Assembly: GCA_035627695.1 (NCBI GenBank)
Contig: DASPLE010000112.1
Span: 5,626 to 69,625, forward strand
Origin: Planctomycetota bacterium
Lineage (GTDB): Bacteria; Planctomycetota; UBA11346
Reading direction: 5' to 3'
Length of the DNA stretch: 64,000 nt
This document shows, in pieces, positions 1,374 to 56,721 of this stretch. Position numbers and translations under genes: made by a program. Every line of letters starts with the position of its first letter. Position 1 is the first letter of the stretch. A model generated the notes under the pieces. It had not been told where the DNA came from and did not search any database. It saw only the letters and a program-made list of their open reading frames with translations.

Positions 1374-3593
1374 ATGAGCACCCCCGACGCCGGTCTCCTG
1401 CCGCGCAACGACACCGAACTGGTGCGCTACGCCGTGCGCATCGGCCTGGTGGCGGGCGACCTCGCCGAGCAGGCGCTGGCGCGCTTCACCGCCGATGGCA
1501 CCGCCGCGCTGACCGATCTGATCGCGCGCGGCGCGCTGGATCGCGAGCGCGTGCTGGCGCTGCGCGACGGGCAGTTCGACTTCATGGACCGCCTCGGGAC
1601 CTACCGGCTGTTCGAGGTCCTCGGCCACGGCGGCATGGGCGTGGTCTACCGCGCCCACGACGAGCGCGGCGGCGAGGCCGCGGTGAAGGTCCTGTCGCCG
1701 CACCTGGCCCTCGACCGCGTGTACCAGCAGCGCTTCCTGCGCGAGGCCCAGGCGGCCGCGTCGGTCGCCAGCCCGTTCGTGGTGCGCTGCCACGGGGGCG
1801 GCTCCGGCGACGGCCGCTACTGGATCGCGATGGAGCTGATGCGCGGCGGCAACGCCGAGGACGCCGCCGAGCGCGAATGCGGCCGGCTGCCCCCCGAACG
1901 CTGCCTGCGCCTGATGCGCGACGCGGCCGAAGGACTCGAGGCGATCGATGCCGCCGGCCTGGTGCATCGCGACATCAAGCCGGCCAACCTGTTCCTGACC
2001 GAGGACGGACGCGCCAAGCTCGGCGACTTCGGCATCGCCCGCCTGCCCGAGGACGACGGCGCGACGCGCCTGACGGCGATCGGCCGGACCCTCGGCACGC
2101 CCGGGTTCATGGCGCCCGAGCAGGCCAGCGCGGTGCCCGACCTCGACATCCGCGCCGACGTCTACGGCATCGGCGCGACGCTGTACTGCCTGCTGACCGG
2201 CCAGGCGCCCTTCATCGGGTCGAGCAACTGGCTGGTGATGTCGCAGGCGCTGGCCAAGCCGCTGCCGGATCCGCGCGACCTCGCGCCCGAATGCCCGCCG
2301 GCCGTCGCCGCGATCGTGCGCGGCTGCGGCGCGCTGCGCCGCGACGATCGCTACCTGACGCCGGCCCTGCTGCGCGCCGACATCGAACGCGTGCTGGCGG
2401 GCGTGGCTCCGCGCCACCTGCCGGTCGCGGCGATGGCCGCCGTGGCGAGCTCGCCGACGCCGAAACGCGCGGCCGGCGCGCCTGAACTCGAGCGACGGAT
2501 CCTGATCGTCGACGACGACCCGCTGCTGACCAGGATCCACGAGTCCAAGTTCACCAGCGCCGGCTGGGAGGTGTCGGTCGCGCACGACGGCGCCACCGCC
2601 CTGGAGCGCGTCGCGACCTTCCGCCCGACGATCATGCTGCTCGATCTGGTGCTGCCCGGACTCGATGGACCGGAGGTCATCCGCCGCCTGCGCCGCGACG
2701 CGCAGACCGCCCTGCTGCCGATCGTGGTGCTGTCGAACGCCTATTTCGCCGACGAGCTGCGCGCGGCGCGCGAGGCCGGCGCCGATCTGATCCTCAGCAA
2801 GGTCGACCACGGCCCGCGCTCCGTGCTCGAGGCCGCCGAGCGCATGCTCGCCGACGACAGCGGCGCCCGCCGCGCGCCCGCGGTGCGGGTCGAGCCGCCG
2901 AGCGGACGCATCGATGGCGGACTGGCGCGCAGCGGCAAGCCCGCGCTGGCCGCGGCGCTGCGCGCGCTGGCCGCGGTCGGCGACGGTCCGGACGCGCGCG
3001 GCGACCTGCTGGAGGTGGCGAACAACCTGCGGCCGCTCACCGGGCTGTCCGCCGCGGCGCGCGCCCCCTACGCCGGCACGCTGGCGTCGGCCGGCGAATC
3101 GCTCGCGCGCCTGCTGCACAGCTGGCCGCGCCACGTCAATCCGTCGTCGCTGCGCACCCTGCGCCAGGCCTGCGATCGCCTCGATGCGATCCTCGCCGGC
3201 GACGCGGCGCCCGACCAGACGGCGGCGCGCGCGCTGGTGGTCGACGACGATCCGGTATCGCGCAACACCATGGTCCAGGCGGTGCGCAAGGTGAACGTCC
3301 AGGTCGAGGCGTGCGCGGACGCGGGCAGCGCCCTCGCCGCGTTGGCCAGCGCGCGCTTCGACATCGTCCTGTGCGACATGATGAAGCCGGGCCTCGACGC
3401 CGCTCAGCTCGTCAGGCGCGTTCGCGCCGACCCGCGCAACCGCGACCTGCCGATCATCGCCGTGACCGGGCTCGGCGATGTGGCGCGGGTCCTCCAGCCC
3501 GCGGCGGGCGAGCGGCCCATCGCCGACGACGTGATCGCCAAGCCGTTCCTGCTGATGGAGCTGGCGACCAAGACGCTCGTCCACCTGCGCTGA
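1374..3593 (+). CDS. Ser/Thr protein kinase fused to two response-regulator receiver (REC) domains
   Basis: ORF-track 739 aa. Kinase motifs: GHGGMGVVYRA, AVKVL, HRDIKPANLFL, DFGIARL, GTPGFMAPE. REC1: RILIVDDDPLL...MLLDLVLPGLDG. REC2: ALVVDDDPVS...VLCDMMKPGLD...IAKPF. Confidence 0.9.
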   Translation: MSTPDAGLLPRNDTELVRYAVRIGLVAGDLAEQALARFTADGTAALTDLIARGALDRERVLALRDGQFDFMDRLGTYRLFEVLGHGGMGVVYRAHDERGGEAAVKVLSPHLALDRVYQQRFLREAQAAASVASPFVVRCHGGGSGDGRYWIAMELMRGGNAEDAAERECGRLPPERCLRLMRDAAEGLEAIDAAGLVHRDIKPANLFLTEDGRAKLGDFGIARLPEDDGATRLTAIGRTLGTPGFMAPEQASAVPDLDIRADVYGIGATLYCLLTGQAPFIGSSNWLVMSQALAKPLPDPRDLAPECPPAVAAIVRGCGALRRDDRYLTPALLRADIERVLAGVAPRHLPVAAMAAVASSPTPKRAAGAPELERRILIVDDDPLLTRIHESKFTSAGWEVSVAHDGATALERVATFRPTIMLLDLVLPGLDGPEVIRRLRRDAQTALLPIVVLSNAYFADELRAAREAGADLILSKVDHGPRSVLEAAERMLADDSGARRAPAVRVEPPSGRIDGGLARSGKPALAAALRALAAVGDGPDARGDLLEVANNLRPLTGLSAAARAPYAGTLASAGESLARLLHSWPRHVNPSSLRTLRQACDRLDAILAGDAAPDQTAARALVVDDDPVSRNTMVQAVRKVNVQVEACADAGSALAALASARFDIVLCDMMKPGLDAAQLVRRVRADPRNRDLPIIAVTGLGDVARVLQPAAGERPIADDVIAKPFLLMELATKTLVHLR

Positions 3594-3610
3594 CGTCGGG
3601 TTCGCTCGGA

Positions 3611-3624
3611 GCGCGAAGCGCGAA
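3611..3624 (+). repeat. Heptamer repeat GCGCGAA x2 (shortest copy of the recurring GCKCGAA microsatellite)
   Basis: gcgcgaa gcgcgaa then gcc, 18 nt after the kinase stop codon (3591-3593). Same unit and orientation as the arrays at 40287 and 54172. Confidence 0.4.
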
Positions 3625-3656
3625 GCCATGAGCCGATCCCCGCATCACCGGACGCA

Positions 3657-4757
3657 TCAGCCAGGGGCCGCGCACGAACCCCGCGGAATGAACCTGCTGG
3701 CGAGGACGATGCGGTGGTCGTCGGCGACCGCCGCGCCGGTGATGAGGTCGCGCACCGCGGCGAACGCCGCGCGACCGATCTCGGTCTTCACCGTCCCGAC
3801 CGACGCCAGCGGCGGATGCACCTGCGCGGCGACATCGAGATCGTCGAAGCCGACCAGGCTCAGCCGTCGCGGGACGGCGACGCCGAGCTCGCCGGCGCGT
3901 TGCAGCGCCCCGAGCGCCATGGTGTCGTTGGCGCAGAAGATCGCCGTCGGCGGCCGGCGCAGCGCGAGCAGGCGGTCGAGCCCGTCCCGGCCCGAGACGA
4001 ACTCGAAATCGCCCGCGGCGACCAGCGCCTCGTCCCAGGCGATGCCGGCCTCGTCCAACGCCGCCCGGTAGCCGGCGAGGCGCTCGCGCATCACCGGCGT
4101 GCCGCGCAGCCCGGCGATGTGGCCGATGCGGCGATGCCCGAGGCCGATCAGGTGCGCGACGGCGTCGTGGGCGCCGCGCGCGTTGTCGACGTGCACCGAC
4201 GGGACCGGCGCGCCCTTGATCACGTCGTCGATCAGCACCAGCGGGACCAGCTTGGCGATCGGCAGCGCCTGGCTCTTGTGGTCGAGCGCGACGCCGACGA
4301 CGCCGTCGACCTTGCGCATCGTCCCGCGCGGCGCGTCCACCGCCGGGCGCGGCAGCACGTCGTCGGGCCGCGTCGCGAAGAACACCGCGTAGCCCTCCTC
4401 GCGCGCCGCGGCCTCGAAGCCGGCGAAGACCTGGCCGTAGTACGCGTTGGCGATGCCGTGGCGGATGTCCGGACCCATGATGAAGCCGAGGTTGCCGGTG
4501 CGCTTCACCACCTGGCCGGCGCGCGAGACGAACGTGCCCTTGCCGAGCTCGCGATAGAGCAGCCCCTCGTCGACCAGCTCGGTGACCGCGCGCCGCACGG
4601 TCATGTAGGACAGGCGGAAGCGCTTGGTCAGGTCGCGCTCCGGCGGCATGCGACCCGTCATCTTGCCGCTGAGGATCAGCTCCTTGAGCTGCTTCTTCGC
4701 CTGGAGGTACGGTGGTTCCTGGGCGGTGCGGTCGATGAGCTTCATGGCCGTCACCAT
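3657..4757 (-). CDS. Transcriptional regulator: GntR-type wHTH N-terminus plus LacI/PBP1-type sugar-binding domain
   Basis: ORF-track 366 aa. N-terminus PPERDLTKRFRLSYMTVRRAVTELVDEGLLYRELGKGTFV (GntR HTH). The remainder resembles the periplasmic-binding-protein-like fold of LacI-family regulators (TAIFCANDTMALGAL, LSLVGFDD). Confidence 0.85.
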   Translation of the reverse strand: MVTAMKLIDRTAQEPPYLQAKKQLKELILSGKMTGRMPPERDLTKRFRLSYMTVRRAVTELVDEGLLYRELGKGTFVSRAGQVVKRTGNLGFIMGPDIRHGIANAYYGQVFAGFEAAAREEGYAVFFATRPDDVLPRPAVDAPRGTMRKVDGVVGVALDHKSQALPIAKLVPLVLIDDVIKGAPVPSVHVDNARGAHDAVAHLIGLGHRRIGHIAGLRGTPVMRERLAGYRAALDEAGIAWDEALVAAGDFEFVSGRDGLDRLLALRRPPTAIFCANDTMALGALQRAGELGVAVPRRLSLVGFDDLDVAAQVHPPLASVGTVKTEIGRAAFAAVRDLITGAAVADDHRIVLASRFIPRGSCAAPG

Positions 4758-4836
4758 GCTCTAGACCTCGCCGCCGGCGACAAGGCGCGATAGCGCGACC
4801 AAAGCCGATCGGGCTTCGCGTCCGAGCCCGTCCGCC

Positions 4837-5544
4837 TCAGGGCCGGCGGAAGACCAGCAGGTGCTGACGCGGCAAGGTCGCGATGGTCTCGACCCATTCG
4901 AAGCCGAGCGACGCCATCTCCAGCCGCGCCTGGGCCTCGCTCATCGTGTGCAGCGGCTTGATCGGCACGTCCGGATCCTCGGCGCGGTACTCCACCAGCG
5001 CGACGCGGCCTCCGGGCCTGAGCGCGACGCGCAGCGCGTTCATCAGCTCGACGGGGTATTCGAGCTCGTGGTAGACATCGACGAACAGCGCCAGGTCGAT
5101 CGAGGCCGCGGGCAGGCGCGGATCGTCGATCGTGCCGAGCACCGGCTCGATGTTGGCGACCCCCGCATCCGCTGCCTTGGCGCGCAGCAGCGCGAGCATC
5201 TCCGGCTGGATGTCGACCGCGTAGACGCGCCGCGCGATGGCGGCGAGGCGCAGGCTGAAGTAGCTGGTGCCCGCGCCGATGTCGGCGACGACGTCGGTCG
5301 CGCGCAGCCGCAGCGTGTCGACCACCAGCGCGGGCCGCTCCTCCTCCTCGCGTTCGGGACGGTCGAGCCACTCGGCGCCCTCGTGGCCCATGACCTGGGC
5401 GATCTCGCGGCCGAGATGCCACTTGCCGATGCCATCGGCGCTGGGCTCGGTGAGCGCGTAGGGCTCGAGCGTCGCGGACTCGGCGCCGCCGAGCGCCAGG
5501 ACCAGGGCCCAGGCCAGGAGGCCGATGCGCAGCGTGGCGTGCAT
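4837..5544 (-). CDS. Class I SAM-dependent methyltransferase with N-terminal signal peptide
   Basis: ORF-track 235 aa. Signal-like MHATLRIGLLAWALVLALGGA and SAM motif I VADIGAGTSYFSLRLA. Confidence 0.85.
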   Translation of the reverse strand: MHATLRIGLLAWALVLALGGAESATLEPYALTEPSADGIGKWHLGREIAQVMGHEGAEWLDRPEREEEERPALVVDTLRLRATDVVADIGAGTSYFSLRLAAIARRVYAVDIQPEMLALLRAKAADAGVANIEPVLGTIDDPRLPAASIDLALFVDVYHELEYPVELMNALRVALRPGGRVALVEYRAEDPDVPIKPLHTMSEAQARLEMASLGFEWVETIATLPRQHLLVFRRP

Positions 5545-5595
5545 GCCGTGGTGATCACTGCGCCACGCGCCTGGACAAGCGACGATGCCGCGCCG

Positions 5596-7884
5596 TCAGC
5601 GCGGGCGGCGCAGGAGCAGCGCCGCCGCCGCGATCACCAGGCCCCCGACTGCGCCGGCGCCGCAGCCACCGCCCGATCCGCCGCCGCCACCGCCGCCGGC
5701 GGTCGATCCCGCGCCCGTCCCGGTTCCCGGCGGCGCCGGATCGCCCGCGCCGACCGTCACGCTGCGCGTCGCCGTCGCGCTGGCGCCGAGGTCGTCGAGC
5801 ACCGTCAACGCGACGGTGTAGGTGCCCGCGGTCCCATAGGCGTGCTGCGCGTCGATGCCGTGACCGAGCGCGCCATCGCCGAAGTCCCAGCGCCAGGCGA
5901 CGATCGCCCCGTCCGCGTCGCTCGCGCCGGCGCCGTCGACGTCAACCGTCAGCGCGGCGGTCGCGGCGGTGAACGCCGACTGCGGGGCGGCATTGCCCGA
6001 TGGCGGCGCGTACGGCGAGAGGCGCGCGCCGAGGATCGGCAGTTCAGCCCGCCCGTCCGGCAGCTCCCAGCCGACGGCCAGGTGGTCGCCGCCGCCGCCC
6101 TCCTTCTGCAGCGCCTCGATGTAGTAGGTGCGGCCCGCCTCGAGACGCACCGGCGCCGAGCGCTGCGCGGGGAACCTGGTCCACTCGCGCGGAGCGGTCC
6201 ACCCCGGGACGTGCGCGATCAGCCGCCGCGTCGCGGCGCGATGGTCGTCGCCGAGCCACAGCTGGCAGCGGTCGTCGCCGGCGACGACGAAGACGTAGTC
6301 GCCGGTCAGCGGCGGATGGACGACGCCGCGCACCCGCGCGCCGTAGAGGTCGCCGACGCCGGCGTACTCGAAGCGCGTCAGGTGCCGGCGCGCGTCGGGA
6401 GCAGCGGGGAATCGCGCGTCGGCCGTGAGATCGGCGACCGCGTCGCCGGCGATCCCGTGCCAGAGCTCGACCCAGGCCACGCCCTCGCCCATCGCCACGA
6501 CCTGCGTGTCGGCATGGCCGGCGGGCTCCTGCCCTTGCGCGCGCAGGCCGTTCCAGTCGCGCGCCGCGTCGTTCCACGCCCAGTGCTCGTCGCCCGCGTC
6601 GTGGGCGTGGTACCGGTTGCGGTCGAAGCGGTTGCCGCCGGCGGCGCCCTGCGCGTCGGGATCGGGGAAGTCGCAGCCGATGCCGCTGAGTCCATCCGCG
6701 CCGTGGTAGACGATCTCGTTGCCGTGGACGACGACGTTGCGCACCAGGCACGGGCCGAACTCGCCGACGCCGCGGTTCTGCGCGATCAGGGTGATGCCGT
6801 GCCCAGCGCGCACCGAGACCAGGTTGCCCGAGACGTCGACGTCGCGCGAGGCCGAGATCTGGATGCCGGCGCCGTACACCCACTCGCGCGTGCCGTTGTC
6901 GATCAGGCTGTTGTGGCGGATGGTCGCCGCGTAGCTGATCTCGTGGAAGATGCCGGCGTCGCGGTTGCGCGCGCAGGTGTTGTATTCGTAGGTCGTGCGG
7001 ATGTTGTCGATGTCGGTCCACAGGCCGGCGCCGCGGTTGTCGTGCACCCAGTTGTCGCGCACCACCAGGCCGTCGGTCAGCGCGAACTTGCTGCCGCCCG
7101 CCTCCCACCCGGCGTTGAAGCGCGCCCAGTTGTTGAAGGCGATCTCGTTGCCCTCGACCACCACGCCGTCGCCGTTCGAGCCGATGCCCTTCTGCCCGTT
7201 CATGACGATGCGGTTGCGCAGCGCGCGCCCGCCCGAGCCGAGGTTGACGCCGGTGCCGTGGTTGAGCCGCACCGTGCAGTCCGCCACCGTCCACCCCGGC
7301 GTCGGGTACTGGTCGCCGATCGCGCCCATCTGCGCCGGGATCGCGTACTTCTCCACCGTCAGCGCGCGGATCACGACGCGGCTCGCGCCGGGCGCGAACG
7401 CGCAGCGCGTGACGCTGGTCTCGACCACCCGCCCCGCCGGATCGTCGCCCAGCCAGATGCGGTCGGCGTCGTAGTCGAAGAACCACGTGCCGGGGACGAC
7501 CGCCGCCTTGCTCGCGACGTGCTGCAGCGGCTGGTCGTCGATGAACAGGTCCTCGGCGTGCTGGCTGCGCCAGCCCGGCTCGACGTCGCCGTGCACCTGG
7601 CCCTGCTGGGTCTGGTTGGACGCGAACCACAGCGCGCCCTCGCGCGTGAAGGACGTCAGCCGTCGCGCGCCGCTCAGGATCGCCCCCGGTTCGCCGATGA
7701 AGACCTGGTCGTCCTTCGGTCGGATGGCGGCGTGGCGGTGCACGCCGGAGCGGATGATGAACGTCGTCCCCGCCGGGTGCGCGTCGACGATCGCGCGCGC
7801 ATCGTCGCCCGGATGGATGTCGACGGCGTGCGCCGTGGCGGACAGGAACAGCGATGCGGCGACGACGCAGCGGATGCGTGCCAT
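5596..7884 (-). CDS. Secreted right-handed parallel beta-helix protein with PA14 and PKD domains and a Cys-containing C-terminal membrane-anchor/sorting signal
   Basis: C-terminal 762 aa of the 1430-aa track ORF. Start is ATG at 7884 (MARIRCVVAASLFLSATAHA signal), preceded by AGGAG. Beta-helix repeats (NHGTGV, GNEIAFNN, DNWVHDNRGAGLW). PA14-like segment (LTGDYVFVVAGDDRCQLWL...YYIEALQKEGGGGDHLAVGW). PKD motif WDFGDG. Tail GGGCGAGAVGGLVIAAAALLLRRPR. Confidence 0.85.
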   Translation of the reverse strand: MARIRCVVAASLFLSATAHAVDIHPGDDARAIVDAHPAGTTFIIRSGVHRHAAIRPKDDQVFIGEPGAILSGARRLTSFTREGALWFASNQTQQGQVHGDVEPGWRSQHAEDLFIDDQPLQHVASKAAVVPGTWFFDYDADRIWLGDDPAGRVVETSVTRCAFAPGASRVVIRALTVEKYAIPAQMGAIGDQYPTPGWTVADCTVRLNHGTGVNLGSGGRALRNRIVMNGQKGIGSNGDGVVVEGNEIAFNNWARFNAGWEAGGSKFALTDGLVVRDNWVHDNRGAGLWTDIDNIRTTYEYNTCARNRDAGIFHEISYAATIRHNSLIDNGTREWVYGAGIQISASRDVDVSGNLVSVRAGHGITLIAQNRGVGEFGPCLVRNVVVHGNEIVYHGADGLSGIGCDFPDPDAQGAAGGNRFDRNRYHAHDAGDEHWAWNDAARDWNGLRAQGQEPAGHADTQVVAMGEGVAWVELWHGIAGDAVADLTADARFPAAPDARRHLTRFEYAGVGDLYGARVRGVVHPPLTGDYVFVVAGDDRCQLWLGDDHRAATRRLIAHVPGWTAPREWTRFPAQRSAPVRLEAGRTYYIEALQKEGGGGDHLAVGWELPDGRAELPILGARLSPYAPPSGNAAPQSAFTAATAALTVDVDGAGASDADGAIVAWRWDFGDGALGHGIDAQHAYGTAGTYTVALTVLDDLGASATATRSVTVGAGDPAPPGTGTGAGSTAGGGGGGGSGGGCGAGAVGGLVIAAAALLLRRPR

Positions 7885-7931
7885 GCGGGGACTCCTGCGT
7901 GGGGACGGTGGACGGGGATGACGGACGGGGC

Positions 7932-10070
7932 TCAGCGCGGCTGGACGACCTCGATGTCGGGAAGCGACGTGCCGATGACGATCACGCCGCCCGGCTCGTT
8001 GCCGGCGGCGCGGAAGCCGTCCCAGTCCATCGGGCGGTCGAGCCACGCCCAATGGAGGGCGGCGGGATCGGGCACGATGTAGCGGTTGCCGTCGAAGACG
8101 TTGGTGGCGAAGCAATCGCCGCGCCCGGTGTCGGTGCAGGCGCCGCAGAACGCATCGGGGCTGGTCATGAGAACGGCGTTGCCGCTGACCAGCGAGCCCG
8201 TGGCGCGCGGCGTCTCGTCCTGCTCCATGATGACGATCCCGTCGGCACCGGGGTCGGTGGCGACGACGCGGTTGCCCTGCACGCGCACGTCGGCGGAATT
8301 GCGCACCAGGATCTGCGCGCCCCAGGCCCAGCCGTTGTCCTGCGAGCCGTTGCCGGCGACGTGGTTGCCGGCGATCAGCGCGCCTCGGCCCTGCTTGTGC
8401 GCGATGCCTTCGCGCGCGTTGCCGACGACGTGGTTGCCGGCGATCGTGGTGTCCCGCGTCGCGCCCTCGGTGATCAGGCCGGCGCCGTGGTTGCCGGTGA
8501 TCGACGTCCCGCGCACGAGCAGGCCGGCGCATGCGCCGAACTTGGCGCCGCCGGCCTCCCAACCAGGATCGAATCCGGCGTGGTTGTTGCCGGTGATGCG
8601 GCAGCCGTCGACGACGAGTCCATCGCCCGACCCGCAGACCCCCTGCTGGCCGTTGCCGGTGACGGTGCAGTCGAGCAGCCGGCTGCCGTCGCGCATCGCG
8701 ACGCCGGTGCCGTGGTTGTGGCGGATGACGCAGCGCTCGATGGTCCAGCGGACGACGCCCTCCTGGTCGCCGATCGCGCCCATCTGCGCGGGATTGGCGT
8801 AGCCTTCGATCACCAGGTCGCGCAGCACGACGCCCTGCGCGCTGCCGGCGAAGGCGCAACGCGCGACGCCGATCTCGACGACATGACCGGCGGGATCGTC
8901 CGCCAGGTGCACGGTGTCCGCGTCGTAGTCGAACAGGAAGGTGCCGGGCTCCAGGGCGGCGCGGTCGCGCACGTGGCGCAGCGGCCGCCCATCGCGCAGG
9001 CAGTCCTCGGCGAACACCGCGCCCGCGCGACCGGGCAGCGCGCGGCCGTGCACCTGGCCCTGCTGGTCCTGCGCGCGCGCGACCCAGTGGCCATCGGCGG
9101 GCACGGCGTCGGCGATGACGCGCGCGCCGGACATGATCGCGCCCTCGTCGCCCTGGAAGACGTCGCCGTCCTTCGGCCGCACCTGCTGCAGGCGATGGAC
9201 GCCGGCGAGCAGGCGGTAGCGGGTGCCGGGCGGGTGCGCGTCGACCGCGGCCTGGAGGTCGTCGCCGACGGCGATCACCACCTCGCCGACGGGCGGCCGG
9301 TCGGTCGGCGCGCCGCCGAGCACGGCGACCGCGCCGCCGACCAGCGAGCCCATCAGGACGATGCCCGCCGCCCACGACGCGAGGGTCACGCCCCCGGTCG
9401 CCGACGCCGTGGTCGCCGCGGCGCCGTGCAGCGTCGCCAGCGATGCGACGAGCGATGCGGGCGCCGCATGGGACGGCTGCGCGGTGAGCAGATTCAGGAT
9501 CGCCGCGGCCGACAGCGCGAAGCCGGCGCGGCCGAGCCGCACGCGCAGGCGATCGCGCGCCCGCGACAGCTGCGCCGCGATCGTCCCGGGCGGGACCGAC
9601 AGCGCCTGGGCCGCCTCCTCCTGCGTCAGACCGGCGAAGTAGTGGAGCAGCACCGGTCGGCGGTAGCGCTCGGGCAGGGCCTCGACCGCGTCGCGGACGG
9701 CCGCGATGGACTCGGCGTCGCCCGGATCGCGGGCGGCGGGTTCGGGCATGGCATCCTCGCGGCGTTCGCGGCGGCGGCGCGCGCTGCGTCGTTGGTCGAT
9801 GGCGGCCGCGCACACCAGGCGGCCGAGCCAGGCGGCGAAGGCGATGCCGCCGTCGTAGCGCGGCGCGGTGGCGATCAGGCGCAGCCACGCCTCCTGCACG
9901 GCCTCCTCGGCCAGGTGCGGGTCACCGGTGATGCGCAGCGCCTGGGTGTAGGTGCGGTCGGCGACGAGCCGGAGGAGGCGATCGAGCGCGGCGCGGTCGC
10001 CACCCTTGGCGAAGCGCAGGAACAGCGCTTCGGCGGTGTCGGCGTCGCTCGGATCCGGGGCGGCATGCAT
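7932..10070 (-). CDS. ECF sigma-70 factor fused through one TM helix to an extracytoplasmic beta-helix domain
   Basis: ORF-track 713 aa (GTG at 10073, ATG at 10070). Sigma region 2 (AEEAVQEAWLRL) and region 4 (ALPERYRRPVLLHYFAGLTQEEAAQALSVPPGTIAAQLSRARDRL). Hydrophobic segment WAAGIVLMGSLVGGAVAVLGGA. The beta-helix is collinear with the neighbour, sharing FDYDAD, DDPAG.VVE, RCAFA, PAQMGAIGDQ, NHGTGV, GWEAGG.KF and HWAW...DW.G.RA.G.EP. Confidence 0.85.
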   Translation of the reverse strand: MHAAPDPSDADTAEALFLRFAKGGDRAALDRLLRLVADRTYTQALRITGDPHLAEEAVQEAWLRLIATAPRYDGGIAFAAWLGRLVCAAAIDQRRSARRRRERREDAMPEPAARDPGDAESIAAVRDAVEALPERYRRPVLLHYFAGLTQEEAAQALSVPPGTIAAQLSRARDRLRVRLGRAGFALSAAAILNLLTAQPSHAAPASLVASLATLHGAAATTASATGGVTLASWAAGIVLMGSLVGGAVAVLGGAPTDRPPVGEVVIAVGDDLQAAVDAHPPGTRYRLLAGVHRLQQVRPKDGDVFQGDEGAIMSGARVIADAVPADGHWVARAQDQQGQVHGRALPGRAGAVFAEDCLRDGRPLRHVRDRAALEPGTFLFDYDADTVHLADDPAGHVVEIGVARCAFAGSAQGVVLRDLVIEGYANPAQMGAIGDQEGVVRWTIERCVIRHNHGTGVAMRDGSRLLDCTVTGNGQQGVCGSGDGLVVDGCRITGNNHAGFDPGWEAGGAKFGACAGLLVRGTSITGNHGAGLITEGATRDTTIAGNHVVGNAREGIAHKQGRGALIAGNHVAGNGSQDNGWAWGAQILVRNSADVRVQGNRVVATDPGADGIVIMEQDETPRATGSLVSGNAVLMTSPDAFCGACTDTGRGDCFATNVFDGNRYIVPDPAALHWAWLDRPMDWDGFRAAGNEPGGVIVIGTSLPDIEVVQPR

Positions 10071-10213
10071 CACCAGCTACCCGTACGCCCCGGCCGGATT
10101 GTTGCACGCATTCCGGGGCGGGGGGTCGCCGTCTCGGCAGTGACACGCCTCGGCGGCCGGCGGCCTGCCCTGATGAACCGCTCACCGGTTGGCGGGAGCC
10201 GACGCGTGCAGCC

Positions 10214-10459
10214 CTAGATGTCGTCCCGCGTTGCGCCCGCAGATCCCGGCGGATCCCAGGCGAAGTCGCTCTCGATGTCGAAGGCAACATCGCAGACGAC
10301 GACGCGGGCGAAGCGCCGGTAGGCCTCGTCCGAGACCCATGCCAACGCTTCACCCTTCACGGCGAAGACCTCGGGCGGGTGGTGGCAGTAGGCGTCCACC
10401 ACCTCCCACCCGTCCGCGGTCGGTACGACCAGCAGCAGCGAATCGACGCCCGCCGCCAT
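10214..10459 (-). CDS. Hypothetical small protein (81 aa)
   Basis: Track ORF with high third-position GC typical of the real genes here. No family recognised. Confidence 0.5.
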   Translation of the reverse strand: MAAGVDSLLLVVPTADGWEVVDAYCHHPPEVFAVKGEALAWVSDEAYRRFARVVVCDVAFDIESDFAWDPPGSAGATRDDI

Positions 10460-10468
10460 GGCCGGTGC

Positions 10469-10672
10469 TCAGACGTGCTGAGCGGTCAGCCCGGTGCGGT
10501 CGAGCGCGCCGCGGGCTTCGTCGAGCAGGTCGGCGACCTTGCCGACGCCGTCCTTGATGCGGTCGCCGAGCTCCATGAGCTCGTGGCGCGCCTCGGGATC
10601 GGTCGCCAGCTTGTAGGCCACGAACGCGGCGGCCGCAGCCACGCCGACGGTGATCAGATTCTTGCTGTCCAT
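10469..10672 (-). CDS. Small membrane-anchored helical protein (67 aa), YtxH/stress-protein-like
   Basis: Track ORF. N-terminal TM segment LITVGVAAAAAFVAYKL followed by a charged helical region. Codon usage is gene-like. Confidence 0.55.
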   Translation of the reverse strand: MDSKNLITVGVAAAAAFVAYKLATDPEARHELMELGDRIKDGVGKVADLLDEARGALDRTGLTAQHV

Positions 10673-10694
10673 TCTTGTCTCTCTCTGGTTCGGG

Positions 10695-10778
10695 TCAGCG
10701 GCGGGTGCCGCGGTTACGGAAGCGGTTCATCAACCAACGCAGGGCGAAGAGCTTGAACATCGGTCCGGCGAGTCGCAT
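10695..10778 (-). CDS. Candidate micro-protein (27 aa) MRLAGPMFKLFALRWLMNRFRNRGTRR
   Basis: Below the ORF-track cutoff. Found by reading the minus strand: GAGGTGA Shine-Dalgarno 4 nt upstream of the ATG (rc of 10776-10778), stop at 10695-10697, 22 nt upstream of the 67-aa gene. Confidence 0.25.
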   Translation of the reverse strand: MRLAGPMFKLFALRWLMNRFRNRGTRR

Positions 10779-10964
10779 AAGTCACCTCGACGACGATTCT
10801 AGCAGCCCGCTTGCGCGCTCCGCACCGACATCGCCCTTCTTCCACAGGCGAGCTCCGCGAAGTTAAGGACCTCGCAGTCCGTGTGATCTCCACGGCACGC
10901 GCCTGCGTCGATCACCCATCGGCGTAGGATCGCCGGGCCGCACCGCGGCGAGGATGGGTGGATC

Positions 10965-11888
10965 ATGGCGCGACCGATCTGGAGCGGGGCGATCAGCTTC
11001 GGCATCGTCAACATCCCGGTGAAGCTGTTCGGCGCGGTGCGCGACCGCGGGCTGCACTTCCATCAGATCAGCGAGAAGCACAAGAAGCGCATCCGCTACC
11101 GGAAGGTCGCCGAGGGCCATGACGAGGAGGTCCACCAGGACGACATCGTCAAGGGCTACGAACTGTCGAAGGGCCGCTACGTCATCGTCGCCGAGAAGGA
11201 GTTCCAGCAGCTCGCGGCGAAGAAGAGCAAGGCCATCGACATCATCGACTTCGTCGGCCTGCACGAGATCGACCCGCTGTACTTCGACCAGCCGTACTAC
11301 GTCGTGCCGGATGAGAAGGCCGGGCGTTCGTACTGGCTGCTGCTCGAGGCGCTGGCCAAGGCCGACAAGGTCGCGATCGCGCAGTTCGTCATGCGCAGCA
11401 AGGAATACCTCGCGGCCGTGCGACCGCTCAACGGCACGCTGTGCCTCGAGACCATGCGCTACGCCGACGAGATCGTCTCGCCCAAGGAGATCGGCATCGA
11501 CGACAGCGCGCGCGAGAAGCCGCAGGATCGCGAGCTCAAGATCGCCAACCAGCTCATCGAGTCGATGACCACGACCTTCGATCCGACGCACTACCGCGAC
11601 GACTACCGCGAGCGCGTGATGGCGTTCATCGAGAAGAAGGCCAAGGGCAAGGGCGTCGAGGTGCTGGACGAGGAGTGGGAGGACGAGCACCACGAGAAGC
11701 CGGGCAAGGTCATCGACCTGATGGCCGCGCTCGAGGAGAGCCTCAACCGCGCCAAGGGCGGCGCGCACCCGCGTTCGCGCAAGCCGGCGCTCAAGCACCA
11801 CGGCGACAAGCATCCGGACAAGGGCCACGAGAAGGGCCACGACAAGGGCGGCGACAAGGGCCACCACGGCCGCAAGCGCGCGGGCTGA
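10965..11888 (+). CDS. ku: Ku protein (non-homologous end joining)
   Basis: ORF-track 307 aa. MARPIWSGAISFGIVNIPVKLF is the canonical bacterial Ku N-terminus. The C-terminus is a Lys/His-rich basic tail. Confidence 0.95.
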   Translation: MARPIWSGAISFGIVNIPVKLFGAVRDRGLHFHQISEKHKKRIRYRKVAEGHDEEVHQDDIVKGYELSKGRYVIVAEKEFQQLAAKKSKAIDIIDFVGLHEIDPLYFDQPYYVVPDEKAGRSYWLLLEALAKADKVAIAQFVMRSKEYLAAVRPLNGTLCLETMRYADEIVSPKEIGIDDSAREKPQDRELKIANQLIESMTTTFDPTHYRDDYRERVMAFIEKKAKGKGVEVLDEEWEDEHHEKPGKVIDLMAALEESLNRAKGGAHPRSRKPALKHHGDKHPDKGHEKGHDKGGDKGHHGRKRAG

Positions 11889-11923
11889 CGCCGGGCGATC
11901 CAGACCACGAGGAGCTGCAGCAG

Positions 11924-13135
11924 ATGGACAATGGCATGAAGCGCGCGCTTCCGGTCGCCGCGGCCGGCGCCGCCGCCCTGGCGGCGTGGAAGATCGGACC
12001 GCGGCGCATCGCGCGCGGGCTCGGCGGCCTCGGCATCGCCGTCACGACGCACGTCGTCGACACGATCGCCGTCGAGGTTCGTCGCAACCGCGACGCGTGG
12101 CGCGATCCGGACGCGCGCGATGCGCAGCGCCCCGAGGCCGACGCCGAGGCATGTCCGATCCCCGCCGCCGCGCCCGCCGAGGCTGGCCCCCGGCTGCGCG
12201 GCAAGGCCGCGTGGTGGGCGGTGACCAAGGAGACCTTCGCCGGCTACGGCGCCGACAAGCTGCCGCGGCTGTCGGCGTCGCTCGCCTACTACACCATCTT
12301 CTCGCTCGCGCCCCTGCTGCTGCTGTGCCTGGGCATCATCGGCCTGGTCTTCGACCGCGAGACCGTGCAGGCGCAGCTGCTCGCGCAGTTCGGCCAGCTG
12401 ATCGGCAAGGAAGGCGCCGAGGCGATCGCGATCATGCTCGGCGCCGGCAGCGCGACGAAGTCGTCGGTCTTCGCGACGGTCATCGGCATCGCGATCCTGA
12501 TCTACACCGCGACCAACGTCTTCGTCGAGCTGCAGTCGGCGATCAACACCATCTGGAAGGTCGGACCGCGCGCCGGGCTCGGCTTCTGGGGCGCGATCCG
12601 GCGTCGGTTCGCGCCCTTCACCATGATCCTGGGCGTCGGCTTCCTGCTGATCACCTCCCTGATCGTCAGCGCCGGCGTCACCGCCCTCGCCGCCTGGCTG
12701 TCGCAGCGCTTCCCGGCGCTCGAGGTCGTCCTGCGCCTCGCCGACGTCGTCATCTTCCTCGGCCTCTCGACGCTGCTGTTCGCGATGATCTACAAGGTGC
12801 TGCCCGACGTGAAGCTGCGCTGGAGCGACGTGTGGTCGGGCGCGCTGCTCGCCGCGGTGATGTTCTCGATCGGGCGTTTCCTCATCGGCCTCTATCTCGG
12901 CCATTCGTCGGTCGCGTCGAGCTTCGGCGCCGCCGGGTCGCTGGTGGTGCTGCTGATCTGGATCTACTACTCGAGCCAGATGCTCCTGCTCGGCGCCGAG
13001 TTCACCCGCGCCCGCGTGCGGGTCTACGGGCCGCCGGTCGAGGTCGACGACGACGCGGCCAAGACGCTGCCCGACGAATGCCGCCCCGAGCCGGCGGTGG
13101 TCGGTCCATCGCAGCCGCCGAAAACCCGGCGGTGA
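11924..13135 (+). CDS. YihY/BrkB-family inner-membrane protein with a roughly 100-aa N-terminal extension
   Basis: In-frame ATG at 11924 (GAGGAG upstream) inside track ORF 11441..13135. Core LSASLAYYTIFSLAPLLLL...VFVELQSAINTIWKV plus multiple TM segments. Confidence 0.85.
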   Translation: MDNGMKRALPVAAAGAAALAAWKIGPRRIARGLGGLGIAVTTHVVDTIAVEVRRNRDAWRDPDARDAQRPEADAEACPIPAAAPAEAGPRLRGKAAWWAVTKETFAGYGADKLPRLSASLAYYTIFSLAPLLLLCLGIIGLVFDRETVQAQLLAQFGQLIGKEGAEAIAIMLGAGSATKSSVFATVIGIAILIYTATNVFVELQSAINTIWKVGPRAGLGFWGAIRRRFAPFTMILGVGFLLITSLIVSAGVTALAAWLSQRFPALEVVLRLADVVIFLGLSTLLFAMIYKVLPDVKLRWSDVWSGALLAAVMFSIGRFLIGLYLGHSSVASSFGAAGSLVVLLIWIYYSSQMLLLGAEFTRARVRVYGPPVEVDDDAAKTLPDECRPEPAVVGPSQPPKTRR

Positions 13136-13215
13136 GGCAGGCGACCACGGCGACGCGCCGCGCGCGATCAGGCGCCCGCGCGAAGCGGCGCCTGACGCCT
13201 CCGGCGCTGACCCCG

Positions 13216-14127
13216 ATGATGGCCAAGCCCGCCCCGCTGCCGAGCGGCGCCGGGTGGAGCTTCGAGTTCAAGTGGGACGGTTTCCGCGCGCTCGGCGCGT
13301 TCGACGGGATCGATCTGCGCCTGATCAGCCGCAACGGCAACGACCTGACCGTCCAGTTCCCCGAGATCGCCCCCCTGGCCAAGACCCTGCGCGAGCCGTG
13401 CCTGCTCGACGGCGAGCTGGTCGCGCTCGATGCGGATTCGCGACCGAGCTTCAGCCTGATGCAGCAGCGCGTGGACCGCGGCACGGCCGGCGGCGCGCGG
13501 ATGTCGATCGCCTACATCGTCTTCGACCTGCCGTGGCATGACGGCGATGATCTCTGCGCGATGCCGCTGACGGCGCGGCGCGCGCGGCTCGCCGAGCTGG
13601 GCCTCGACGACCCGCGCTGGCGCGTGCCGGGCTCCCACGACGACGGCGCCGAGATGCTGCGCCTGGCGCGCGCGCACGGCCTCGAGGGCGTCATCGCCAA
13701 GCGCGACGACAGCCCCTATCGCCCGGGCAGGCGCAGCGGCGAATGGCTGAAGATCAAGATCGTCAAACGCGACGAGTTCGTCGTCGGCGGCTACGCGTTC
13801 GGCAAGGACGGGAAGAGCCTCGGCGCGCTGCTGCTGGGCTTCCACGACGCCACCGGCCGGTTGATCTACGCCGGTCGCGTCGGCACCGGCTTCAGCATCC
13901 GGCAACGCCGCGAGCTCAAGGCGCGCCTCGACGCGCAGGCCTGCGCCGCCAGCCCGTTCGCGAACCTCAAGCGCCAGAAGGACGCGGTGTGGTCGACCCC
14001 GCTGCTGGTGGCCGAGGTCGGCTACAGCGAGTGGACGCACGACGCCTCGCTGCGCCATCCGACGTTCCAGGGACTGCGCGTCGACAAGTCGCCCGCGGAG
14101 GTCCTCGATCCGCGCGTCGGCGCGTGA
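13216..14127 (+). CDS. ATP-dependent DNA ligase, ligase domain only (no polymerase or phosphoesterase domain)
   Basis: In-frame ATG at 13216 inside track ORF 11986..14127. WSFEFKWDGFR (adenylation Lys motif I), LLDGELV, EGVIAKR, WLKIK. Confidence 0.9.
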   Translation: MMAKPAPLPSGAGWSFEFKWDGFRALGAFDGIDLRLISRNGNDLTVQFPEIAPLAKTLREPCLLDGELVALDADSRPSFSLMQQRVDRGTAGGARMSIAYIVFDLPWHDGDDLCAMPLTARRARLAELGLDDPRWRVPGSHDDGAEMLRLARAHGLEGVIAKRDDSPYRPGRRSGEWLKIKIVKRDEFVVGGYAFGKDGKSLGALLLGFHDATGRLIYAGRVGTGFSIRQRRELKARLDAQACAASPFANLKRQKDAVWSTPLLVAEVGYSEWTHDASLRHPTFQGLRVDKSPAEVLDPRVGA

Positions 14128-20159: not shown

Positions 20160-21203
20160 TCAGCCGGGCGCGTGCAGCCGCTGCCATTCGCTCGGCGTGC
20201 GACCCTTGAGCTTCTTGAAGACGATCGCGAAGTACTGGGACGAGCTGAAGCCCAGATCGAGGGCGATGTCGGTCACCGGCACGTCCCGTCGCGCCGCCAG
20301 GCGCCGGGCGGCCTCGTCGATGCGCAGCGCGGTCATGTACTCCAGCGCCGTCTGGCCGGTCTCGCCGCGGAAGACGGTGGCGAAATGCGCCGGGGACAGC
20401 CCCACGCGCTGCGCCATCTCGGCGAGCGCGGGGGGATCGGCGAGGCGCGTCGGCAGCCAGGCTATCAAGCGCTGGAATTCGGGTCGCGCCGGCGCGCGCT
20501 GCGCCGGCGACGCGGCGGCGCGCTGCGCCGCATGCAGGCGCGTGACCGACACCAGCAGCTCGACCAGCAGCGCCTGGACCATGATGACGGTCAGCGCGCG
20601 GTCCGGCGCCGAGGTCTCGACCCAGGCGCGATCGAGCTCGCCGAGGATGCGCCGGTAGATCGCCTCGATGCCGTGCGCGCCGTGGATGACGCGCGTGCCG
20701 AGGATCGGCTCGGCGTCGAAGGCGCGCGCCTCCGCCACCGCGACCGAGACGTCGCGCGCGCCGTCGTCCGCGCGGGCTCCGCCCAGCCGGCCCGCCAGCG
20801 GCAGCAGCGCCGGATCGAAGCCGACCGCGAAGTTGTGCTGCGGGTCCTTGGGATCGGGTCGTCCGCCGTGCGGTTCGCCGGGACGGGTGATCCACAGGTC
20901 GCCCGCGGCGAGGTCGAACGCGGCGCCGTCGACCGTCCACCGGCAACGCCCGGCGTGCACGTAGACGATCTCGTAGGTCGGGTGCCGGTGCTGGTGCAGG
21001 ACGTGATCGGCGGTGGTCACGGCCTCGTTGATGTGGGTGAAGGCCGGGAACTCCGGCAGCGGCGATTCGTAGCTGTGGAAGTAGCGGAACCCGACATCGG
21101 CGTCGGCGCCGTACTGCCGCCGCGGACCGTGCGAATCCGCACGCGGCCACGACGAAACCGGACGCGCCCCATCATCGTCGGCTACACTCACGCTCACGAT
21201 CAT
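20160..21203 (-). CDS. AraC-family transcriptional regulator (cupin plus HTH)
   Basis: C-terminal part of track ORF 20160..21536. Start taken at ATG 21203 so that it does not overlap the divergent GH38 gene. HTH LSPAHFATVFRGETGQTALEYMTALRI and VTDIALDLGFSSSQYFAIVFKKLKGRTPSEW. Confidence 0.8.
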   Translation of the reverse strand: MIVSVSVADDDGARPVSSWPRADSHGPRRQYGADADVGFRYFHSYESPLPEFPAFTHINEAVTTADHVLHQHRHPTYEIVYVHAGRCRWTVDGAAFDLAAGDLWITRPGEPHGGRPDPKDPQHNFAVGFDPALLPLAGRLGGARADDGARDVSVAVAEARAFDAEPILGTRVIHGAHGIEAIYRRILGELDRAWVETSAPDRALTVIMVQALLVELLVSVTRLHAAQRAAASPAQRAPARPEFQRLIAWLPTRLADPPALAEMAQRVGLSPAHFATVFRGETGQTALEYMTALRIDEAARRLAARRDVPVTDIALDLGFSSSQYFAIVFKKLKGRTPSEWQRLHAPG

Positions 21204-21267
21204 GGCCGGCGCCCGCCGCCGCCAATGCCCCACCAGCGCCCCGCGAAGCCCCCCTGCGAACGGACCC

Positions 21268-47900: not shown

Positions 47901-48144
47901 GCCGGACGGCCGCGGCGCGGCGAACCGGACGCCCATACCGGAATCATGGTTGCCATTGCACGCCTCCGCATAGCGACGTCGCCGCCGCCGCGCGCGCCGG
48001 GGCGTGCGCTCGGCTCAGCCGTCGACCACTTCGCCACGAGAGGCGCGATCGCTACATGCAATCCGGCACGACCGTCCACGCCCGGAACCGCTCCCGGCCC
48101 CGGGGAAGCCTGTATCGAGCCACGACCGGCCGGAGAGCTGGGCC

Positions 48145-54167: not shown

Positions 54168-54171
54168 CAGG

Positions 54172-54247
54172 GCGCGAAGCCGGAGCCGCGAAGCGCGAAG
54201 CGCGAAGCTCGAAGCTCGAAGCTCGAAGCTCGAAGCGCGAAGCGCGA
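54172..54247 (+). repeat. Heptamer microsatellite, about 11 units of GCGCGAA/GCTCGAA
   Basis: gcgcgaa gccggag ccgcgaa (gcgcgaa)x2 (gctcgaa)x4 gcgcgaa gcgcga, beginning 5 nt after the stop codon at 54165-54167. Confidence 0.9.
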
Positions 54248-54303
54248 CGAGTCCATCATCCGACGCAATCCGCTCGCTGACCGCGAGCGACCAGGAGCAC
54301 CGC

Positions 54304-56499: not shown

Positions 56500-56721
56500 C
56501 GCTCGCGGAAACGCCAACCGGACAGCGGTTTTCCCGATCCCACGAAGTGACACGCGAGGCCGCGCGCGGCGCCGGGCAGGCCGTCGCGACGCGCGGCCGC
56601 GGACTGTCTCAATCGCCGCGGACGGTGACGGAATGCGGCGCGAGGTTGTCGCGTAACGCGCATCCGCGCGTGGAGAGAGCCGCTGACCAGCTCCACCACC
56701 GCGCCGCGCAAGGACCTCCCC

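Follow-up and report, generated by a model that had tools for sequence, protein, structure and literature searches.

The 64,000-nt stretch of DNA analysed here, called the window below, comes from a Planctomycetota bacterium (assembly GCA_035627695.1, contig DASPLE010000112.1, positions 5,626 to 69,625) and has a G+C content of 72-75%. Two neighbouring genes on its minus strand, which we named A and B, are the subject of this study. As listed below, gene A encodes in a single open reading frame (ORF) an extracytoplasmic function (ECF) sigma factor that is joined, through a linker and a transmembrane helix, to a right-handed beta-helix, and this beta-helix is a catalytically degenerate paralog of the one encoded by gene B directly downstream. 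Positions are those of the window, and protein residues are numbered in amino acids (aa).

7932..10070, minus strand: gene A, 712 aa; ECF sigma factor, linker, transmembrane helix and degenerate GH120-like beta-helix in a single ORF
9771..9959, minus strand: sigma-70 region 2 of A, aa 38-100; PF04542, E = 2.5e-11; predicted local distance difference test (pLDDT) above 90 in the AlphaFold2 (AF2) model
9543..9701, minus strand: sigma-70 region 4 of A, aa 124-176; PF08281 (Sigma70_r4_2), E = 5e-15, and PF04545; pLDDT above 90 in the AF2 model
9375..9527, minus strand: cytoplasmic juxtamembrane linker of A, aa 182-232; motif RxG..LSAAA..L......AAP..L with an invariant Pro204
9303..9374, minus strand: single Gly-rich transmembrane helix of A, aa 233-256, WAAGIVLMGSLVGGAVAVLGGAPT
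7935..9290, minus strand: right-handed beta-helix of A, predicted extracytoplasmic, aa 261-712; catalytically degenerate paralog of B
7885..7931, minus strand: spacer between A and B, 47 nt; AGGAG 8 nt before the ATG of B
5596..7884, minus strand: gene B, 762 aa; signal peptide, GH120-like beta-helix with intact triad, PA14 domain, PKD domain and hydrophobic tail with Cys-Gly
6463..7824, minus strand: beta-helix of B, aa 21-474; catalytic codons D291 at 7012-7014 and E315 at 6940-6942
6037..6357, minus strand: PA14 domain of B, aa 510-616; PF07691, E = 6.2e-8
5752..5988, minus strand: PKD domain of B, aa 633-711; PF18911, E = 1.3e-20
5599..5673, minus strand: C-terminal tail of B, aa 738-762; Gly run, Cys741-Gly, hydrophobic stretch and RRPR; putative sorting or anchor signal

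The sigma part of protein A is complete with respect to sigma-70 regions 2 and 4, and is of the ECF type. The Pfam models PF04542, PF08281, PF04545 and PF07638 all matched, no Pfam match to sigma regions 1 and 3 was found in gene A, and TIGR02937 (sigma70-ECF) scored 80.4 bits, with a cut-off of 42.9. NCBIfam equivalog and subfamily models all stayed under their cut-offs, for example TIGR02989 of the Rhodopirellula/Verrucomicrobium family with 46 bits versus 124.55. The AF2 model of aa 1-262, based on a 21-sequence input, shows two helical sigma domains with pLDDT values above 90. Further downstream, Pfam recognised a Beta_helix/NosD match at aa 441-613.

The topology of A was judged from hydropathy, charge distribution and homology. 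The protein has one hydrophobic segment only. Its centre lies at aa 242, its Kyte-Doolittle values reach 2.05, and it is the sole peak of at least 1.6. It is flanked by the basic sequence RLRVRLGR on its N-terminal side and by a net acidic C-terminal side. Because the sigma domain needs access to RNA polymerase, the homologues of the beta-helix carry signal peptides and the flanking charges fit, we infer that the N-terminus of A lies inside and the C-terminus outside the cytoplasm. A preliminary description of the locus, made from the DNA sequence alone, had already proposed the complete regions 2 and 4, the hydrophobic helix that follows them and an extracytoplasmic beta-helix. The first two were confirmed by the domain matches and the hydropathy profile, and the third is supported by homology, starting at the mature N-terminus of B, to proteins with signal peptides. 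The same description noted that a zinc-binding anti-sigma motif (HxxxCxxC) is missing, and since aa 88-356 of A do not contain any Cys, this is indeed the case.

The two beta-helices were described earlier as collinear, and BLASTP aligned aa 264-708 of A with aa 21-474 of B at 43% identity over 459 columns (E = 2e-102), well above the similarity of generic beta-helix repeats. The signal peptide of B ends with AHA, directly before a Val, and the homology with A starts exactly at the resulting mature N-terminus of B, thus the sigma-linker-transmembrane module replaces the signal peptide of B. The remaining features reported for this neighbourhood, i.e. PA14 and PKD domains and an anchor-like C-terminal part in B, the 47-nt gap and the AGGAG before B, were also found, the tail being hydrophobic. 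Tails of this type, consisting of a Gly/Ser/Thr-rich run, Cys-Gly, ~15 hydrophobic residues and an Arg-rich end, are common to B-like proteins of Planctomycetota, as seen in P0003, L003:1052-3190 (L003dn) and L027. The tail of B can be likened to sorting signals of the MYXO-CTERM or PEP-CTERM type; these two and the other NCBIfam sorting signals gave no match, even at E values up to 10.

The beta-helix of A was modelled with high confidence (AlphaFold, aa 261-712, pLDDT 91.9, predicted template-modelling score (pTM) 0.91). When this model was compared to the PDB with Foldseek, the best match was XylC (3vst, E = 2.9e-12; TM-score 0.69 for the query and 0.50 for the target), and the next matches were BT_1002, alginate epimerases, GH110 and polysaccharide lyases, which are carbohydrate-active beta-helices. 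XylC is the founding GH120 beta-xylosidase (PDB 3VST), for which Asp382 has been proposed as nucleophile and Glu405 as acid/base, and in which Glu353 and Lys358 bind the sugar in position -1 (PMC3507262). A profile of the A/B family matched the XylC sequence with E = 1.7e-6 over only ~110 residues, with ~12% identity. In the profile-to-PDB alignment, His352-Glu353 and Lys358 of XylC correspond to the family motif GWEAGGxKF, Asp382 to GLWTD and Glu405 to GIFHEIS. XylC and the A/B family thus both have a right-handed beta-helix, in which the conserved Glu, Lys, Asp and Glu of the family have Glu353, Lys358, Asp382 and Glu405 as their XylC counterparts. XylC contains an inserted beta-sandwich domain. 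The catalytic pair of XylC is missing from A. On these alignments and models the family resembles GH120, short of an assignment to it, and because the identity is only ~12% the substrate cannot be deduced from that of XylC. Most family members are stand-alone secreted proteins, found in Azospirillum, Planctomycetota, Acidobacteriota, Chloroflexota and the candidate phyla radiation, among others. Based on sequence, B is probably such a secreted protein, and probably a surface-anchored, GH120-like retaining glycosidase.

Catalytic residues in enzymes and signalling fusions

If A were a sensor and B its effector, catalytic residues might be kept in only one of the two copies, and the preliminary description had suggested this as a check. 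The alignment fits such a split. B holds the full set of XylC-like active-site residues, E261, K266, D291 and E315, and A retains the first two of these as E505 and K510 and loses the catalytic pair through the following substitutions.

8466..8468, minus strand: codon E535 of A, at the family-invariant Asp position (XylC D382); GLWTD has become GLITE
8394..8396, minus strand: codon K559 of A, at the family-invariant Glu position (XylC E405); GIFHEIS has become GIAHKQG

The conservation of the Lys-Asp-Glu (K-D-E) triad was determined in other family members. In the set formed by the GTDB loci and the first homologues, the Lys was present in 80/80, the Asp in 78/80 and the Glu in 78/81 sequences, the only exceptions being A, its homologue P0002 and a truncated ORF at locus L003. 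A wider survey comprised the top 150 representatives plus controls, 158 aligned domain instances in all, and in 149 of them, B included, the triad was intact. It was broken in all four full-length fusions with a sigma factor, as KEK in A, KDK in P0002, KDG in P0025 and KQD in P0027. It was also broken in both proteins in which a beta-helix is preceded by a transmembrane segment and a FecR domain (P0034, KDY; P0039, KET). The three further broken domains were the first tandem domain of P0026, a second domain of P0032, and P0066, and none of the remaining survey members has a sigma or FecR N-terminus. Degenerate triads were therefore found in 6/6 signalling fusions versus 3/152 other instances (Fisher p = 4e-9).

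The Glu/Lys binding pair of GWEAGGxKF is retained in most of these sensors, and the loss of chemistry with preservation of binding residues is the pattern that an enzyme-derived receptor should display. The two FecR proteins, P0034 (L051:46-2064) and P0039, consist of a short N-terminus, a transmembrane segment, the FecR domain (PF04773) and the degenerate beta-helix. Judged by this architecture, they represent a second signalling scaffold with a putative dead-enzyme receptor of the same family. P0026 (947 aa) contains two tandem beta-helices of the family, the first with KDM (a Met at the acid/base position) and the second intact, and may be a dead/live pair inside one polypeptide.

Recurrence, ancestry and genomic context

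The fusion does not stem from a frameshift, a missed stop or another assembly artefact, since an identical 712-aa product with the same neighbours is encoded on a 30 kb contig of ENA ERZ27257312 and on an 11 kb contig of Logan SRR7003766, and full-length homologues exist. The latter came from an exhaustive hidden Markov model search, which compared a profile built from A and P0002 with 1.84 billion representative proteins. At the top of the results were the full-length sigma-transmembrane-beta-helix proteins P0002 (709 aa, labelled Planctomycetota by NCBI), P0025 (697 aa, on a contig of the Planctomycetota metagenome-assembled genome MGR_bin361) and P0027 (733 aa). Both P0025 and P0027 had Pfam matches to sigma regions 2 and 4 and to Beta_helix. 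These homologues are only 36-43% identical to A and their ORFs are full-length and intact. The fused architecture, proposed earlier as something to look for in other genomes, thus recurs in P0002, P0025 and P0027, and also in an ortholog at locus L052 (GCA_043737525.1, JAYTAL010000026.1, 331-2208), which is 70% identical to aa 2-628 of A in a single frame. Wider scans were empty: among GTDB representative genomes the family has 47 loci, and a fused sigma domain is absent from all of them. No extra fusions were found in metagenome contigs, where a sensor-specific DNA pattern gave nothing and an alignment-driven scan brought up only generic ECF sigma genes. We conclude that the fusion exists and is conserved, although it is rare.

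The arrangement with a second beta-helix gene downstream also recurs. Four genes of the sensor type, all with a broken triad, have a beta-helix gene behind them, and the downstream triad was intact in the three that were checked (B, L003 and L051). At L003 (Planctomycetota MGR_bin222), a 5'-truncated ORF (nt 2-1048) encodes a degenerate domain (KET) that is 46% identical to A, with which it has the derived features GLLAEG and NAREGI in common. Its downstream gene starts 3 nt further on and encodes a secreted beta-helix of 713 aa, 58% identical to B, in which the triad is intact and the Cys-Gly tail recurs. At L051, the P0034 gene is followed after 19 nt by a gene whose product is a secreted beta-helix exceeding 1280 aa, with PKD-type repeats and an unbroken triad. 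Behind the P0027 fusion come first a 113-aa gene and next a 754-aa Beta_helix and PKD gene, the latter outside the triad count. P0105 had been considered as a neighbour of P0027 and was rejected, as it sits on an unrelated locus. In MGR_bin361 the P0025 gene reaches the contig end and a separate contig, L027, begins within a B-like gene, so these two contigs may be adjacent. B is 58% and 53% identical to its orthologs versus 44% to A, and it groups with L003dn, P0030 and L004 in a neighbour-joining tree. The degenerate domain of A can therefore not have come from a recent in situ duplication of B; instead, the duplication is old and A and B have been inherited together.

The nearest relatives of the sigma domain of A carry other outer domains, such as WD40 repeats, carboxypeptidase-regulatory-like repeats or a serpin. 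P0172 has a sigma domain that is 48% identical to that of A, and the same linker, with a different domain past the transmembrane helix, and the sigma relatives P0014-P0024 have outer domains other than the beta-helix. Examples are P0023 (673 aa), P0016/P0018 and P0015/P0019-P0021, in which the transmembrane helix connects the sigma module to a serpin, WD40 or carboxypeptidase-regulatory-like repeats, respectively; the sigma-transmembrane-serpin protein is itself an unusual architecture. The motif RxG..LSAAA..L......AAP..L after region 4 is kept in 21 sigma-transmembrane-extension proteins with unrelated outer domains (from among A, P0002, P0014-P0027 and P0172-P0191). Its Pro204 is invariant in 21/21 and conserved like core sigma residues, and a low-complexity stretch and the transmembrane helix come next. 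No Pfam family covers the motif, which is a candidate auto-inhibitory or protease-recognition element. For planctomycetal ECF sigma factors it has been proposed that the sigma module was duplicated and inserted, giving rise to their C-terminal extensions, and whether such extensions can regulate was left open (Pinto et al. 2020, PMC7671368). As in the cases described there, A has regions 2 and 4 joined to an extension homologous to non-sigma proteins, and sigma relatives with different extensions. Since the linker and the transmembrane helix are part of the mobile unit, the duplication-insertion model extends beyond regions 2 and 4. The homologues labelled Planctomycetota, together with this cassette biology, also support the phylum of the window.

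Upstream of A, nucleotide similarity between the window and L052 starts 55 nt before the ATG, and genes further upstream differ. This conserved block is a candidate promoter or short leader.

10071..10125, minus strand: conserved block upstream of A, 55 nt, TGCAAC-N13-CG(T/C)AC-GGGTA, shared with L052

No sigma-70 promoter or terminator was found in window positions 3500-11000, the A-B spacer included. Because this spacer measures only 47 nt and has no promoter- or terminator-like site, A and B are probably co-transcribed, and a nearby gene, for a methyltransferase whose N-terminus resembles a signal peptide, may be part of this transcript. Two small ORFs lie just upstream of A on the minus strand, 10214-10459 (81 aa) and 10469-10672 (67 aa, with an N-terminal hydrophobic helix). 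Neither had a Pfam match above the curated cut-off, and neither occurs upstream of the L052 ortholog.

The sugar-related genes in the neighbourhood encode a GntR-family regulator with a LacI-type sugar-binding domain, a sugar ABC transporter, GFO/IDH/MocA oxidoreductases and a GH38 alpha-mannosidase (21085-23406), and PIG-L and GH42-like genes are present elsewhere in the window. The GntR/LacI-type regulator gene (3657-4757, minus strand) is convergent with, and 63 nt away from, a gene at 1374-3593 (plus strand) for a 739-aa protein with a Ser/Thr kinase domain and two response-regulator receiver domains. On the other side, and divergent from A-B, lies a non-homologous end-joining cluster (10965-14127, plus strand) encoding Ku, a BrkB/YihY-family membrane protein and an ATP-dependent DNA ligase of the LigD type. 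Four ORFs of 727-840 codons from stop to stop, at 45834-48014 (minus strand), 47974-50493, 54040-56496 and 56629-59088 (plus strand), have a coding-like G+C content at third codon positions of 0.90-0.94 and gave no Pfam match at E values up to 1e-5.

The probable co-transcription of A and B, and the anchor-like tail that would probably keep B on the cell surface, would also suit a role for A other than the sensing of a nutrient glycan. The dead beta-helix could watch the cell's own surface polysaccharide, or could bind B and report its export or occupancy, in which case B would be a surface-glycan remodeller. Contacts between the paralogs are conceivable, since XylC crystallised with four monomers (PMC3507262). 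Yet, the sugar-binding residues E505 and K510 are kept in A, and their counterparts in most sensors, which points to sugar binding rather than to a protein-protein surface, and sugar-uptake and catabolism genes abound nearby, so that we regard this role as rather unlikely.

Possible release of the tethered sigma domain

The reading that we favour, with moderate confidence, is that the pseudo-enzyme part of A is a carbohydrate receptor that tethers the sigma domain to the membrane, and that ligand-triggered proteolysis frees the latter, by analogy with the tethered sigma factor IutY, whose release by Prc and RseP has been shown experimentally (PMC8999054). In this scheme, the dead beta-helix of A would bind the glycan that is cleaved by B, or its products. 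Intact A would keep the sigma domain at the membrane, and ligand binding would trigger site-1 and subsequently intramembrane (RseP-type) proteolysis of A. The freed sigma domain would then drive the A-B transcript, which would amount to autoregulation by a positive feedback loop.

Several observations weigh against this scheme. The preliminary description suggested looking for an ECF-type promoter upstream of 10070 and 7884, and no canonical site turned up there: GAAC-N15-18-CGT is absent upstream of both A and B, and its window-wide count is at chance level. The conserved block upstream of A has TGCAAC-N13-CGNAC, a non-canonical spacing that misfits GAAC-N16/17-CGT, and there is no meaningful second copy of this block anywhere in the window. 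No protease gene is linked to the A-B locus. Protein A shares with known sigma/anti-sigma fusions the sigma domain, the transmembrane segment and the extracytoplasmic domain, and lacks a recognisable anti-sigma domain, be it of the zinc-binding anti-sigma (ZAS), RskA or FecR N-terminal kind. Between region 4 and the transmembrane helix, no such domain was matched by Pfam or NCBIfam in aa 182-232, and this segment of 51 aa is too short for a four-helix anti-sigma domain. In the AF2 model of aa 1-262 the linker (pLDDT 40-76) and transmembrane helix were of low confidence and did not dock on the sigma domains. An anti-sigma domain embedded in A is thus unsupported, and the 'one-protein sigma/anti-sigma/sensor device' of the preliminary description was an overstatement, given the Pfam result and the low confidence for aa 182-262. 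Consequently, tethering alone would need to keep the sigma domain inactive.

That neither an anti-sigma domain nor a linked protease gene was found would agree with a sigma factor that is active while tethered, comparable to ToxR or CadC. The ligand would then alter oligomerisation or conformation, and the flexible linker of ~50 residues would allow the sigma domain to reach RNA polymerase without proteolysis. The linker is long, rich in Ala, Gly, Ser and Thr and predicted to be disordered, and the invariant Pro204 motif suggests that it has a role of its own. Nevertheless, helix-destabilised Gly-rich transmembrane helices are favoured by site-2 proteases, as in RseP substrates, and the helix of A is probably of this kind. 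Moreover, IutY, the only tethered ECF sigma factor that has been studied experimentally, requires cleavage by Prc and RseP (PMC8999054). We therefore consider activity in the tethered state improbable, and proteolytic release the better supported scheme.

Other reservations about ligand-triggered release concern the evolutionary evidence. The 6/6 association between signalling fusions and broken triads should not be counted as six separate events: the degenerate domains may go back to a common ancestor, and shared ancestry inflates the statistics. In the neighbour-joining tree, all seven degenerate domains cluster together with a bootstrap value of only 20% (A with P0025, 63%; the truncated L003 domain, L003up, with P0027, 52%). 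The kinship with GH120 is remote, given its ~12% identity and E = 1.7e-6 over ~110 residues, and it is the basis from which both the catalytic assignment and any substrate are extrapolated. In the L052 ortholog, codon 344, close to where the beta-helix begins, is an in-frame TAG. Beyond this codon the sequence is still well conserved, with the same degenerate residues (GLLVETG, GISHKQG). The TAG could be a sequencing error, a sign of a very recent pseudogene or a site of read-through, and it might mean that the A gene is dispensable. Between A and L052 the ratio of non-synonymous to synonymous substitution rates (dN/dS) was 0.19 for the sigma domain (aa 1-181), 0.43 for the linker and transmembrane helix and 0.47 for the beta-helix (aa 261-628). 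By this measure the selection on A is purifying, with the beta-helix less constrained than the sigma domain.

The last two observations would also fit a fusion that is a mere by-product of the insertion of a sigma cassette into a duplicated beta-helix gene, in which nothing is sensed, the beta-helix is decaying and the sigma domain is inactive or regulated in another way. Such insertions, and doubts about the function of the resulting extensions, are the subject of the study of Pinto et al. (PMC7671368), and the catalytic positions have decayed to different residues in different members. Against this, the architecture lasts, with intact ORFs, across homologues whose identity to A is only 36-43%, the fold prediction is confident and dN/dS is below 1. 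In addition, catalytic residues were lost while binding residues were kept, and the combination of a dead and a live paralog recurs on the FecR scaffold. A functionless by-product is therefore unlikely in our view. The purifying dN/dS, the fold, which is predicted to be intact, and the architecture kept at 36-43% identity argue that the extension of A is selected.

Relation to known systems and implications

The preliminary description regarded the paralogy between sensor and effector as unfamiliar, which is true for the combination found in A-B and not for the principle. In Clostridium thermocellum, the GH10 module of RsgI6 is 57% identical to Xyn10D, a xylanase whose promoter is activated by sigma-I6 (PMC4711584). 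According to a passage in that article that cites Bahari et al. 2011, this module has very low activity and still binds xylan and cellulose (PMC4711584). Because sensor-effector paralogy has thus been documented for RsgI6 and Xyn10D, A-B does not constitute a new category. The likeness to SigI6/RsgI6 lies in an outer module with a glycoside hydrolase fold that is paralogous to the regulated enzyme, and in a single transmembrane segment, with RseP-type cleavage in C. thermocellum and proposed cleavage in A. The differences are that sigma-I and RsgI, the latter with an RsgI_N domain, are separate proteins, whereas A combines a sigma domain with its own transmembrane helix and sensor, and that the GH10 module is a TIM barrel from another phylum, whereas A has a GH120-like beta-helix and the enzyme gene B is adjacent and probably on the same transcript. 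As A has an ECF-type, fused sigma domain instead of an RsgI_N domain and a separate SigI-family sigma factor, the two systems resemble each other in function alone.

A tethered sigma factor also has precedents. IutY of Pseudomonas putida (ECF243) and the actinobacterial groups ECF52 and ECF53 (e.g. SCO4117) have, like A, an N-terminal ECF sigma domain, a transmembrane segment and an outer domain in one polypeptide (PMC8999054, PMC5826349), and in ECF52 proteins the outside contains a carbohydrate-binding domain. In contrast to A, these proteins have a recognisable anti-sigma part, of the FecR type or ZAS, between the sigma domain and the membrane. Furthermore, the signal for IutY comes from a TonB-dependent receptor, whereas that for A is proposed to come from its own ligand-binding enzyme fold. 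ECF57 proteins have WD40 extensions (PMC8999054), and the sigma relatives of A likewise have unrelated extensions. With the planctomycetal extensions described by Pinto et al., A shares an extension homologous to ordinary non-sigma proteins of related organisms. It differs from these insertions in that the donor family, an adjoining intact paralog and a specific catalytic loss can be identified, and in that the fusion occurs in several genomes. With an identifiable donor, catalytic loss and conservation, the extension of A therefore looks selected and not fortuitous. Structurally, IutY and ECF52/ECF53 are nearest to A, functionally SigI6/RsgI6 and evolutionarily the planctomycetal cassette insertions. 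What is new is the combination of an ECF sigma factor in one polypeptide, without a recognisable anti-sigma domain, with a pseudo-GH120-like receptor and a live paralog directly downstream.

The A-B locus provides a concrete and testable case for the question of extension function raised in PMC7671368. The logic of a dead and a live paralog, seen here on sigma and FecR scaffolds and in Firmicutes in RsgI6, suggests that enzymes have turned into receptors more than once. It would also offer a route to inducers and substrates of uncharacterised planctomycetal carbohydrate-active enzymes (CAZymes), and A may be a compact single-gene module for transmembrane sensing and transcription. A tentative generalisation, which we put forward as possible though doubtful, is that in Planctomycetota and relatives a duplicated copy of a secreted CAZyme, once dead and mounted on a sigma-linker(Pro204)-transmembrane or transmembrane-FecR scaffold, senses the substrate upstream of the live enzyme. 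If true, the invariant linker motif would be a shared release or auto-inhibition element, and the seemingly 'random' extensions of planctomycetal ECF sigma factors would be one-component transmembrane sigma receptors that make up a combinatorial library and do without a classical anti-sigma domain.

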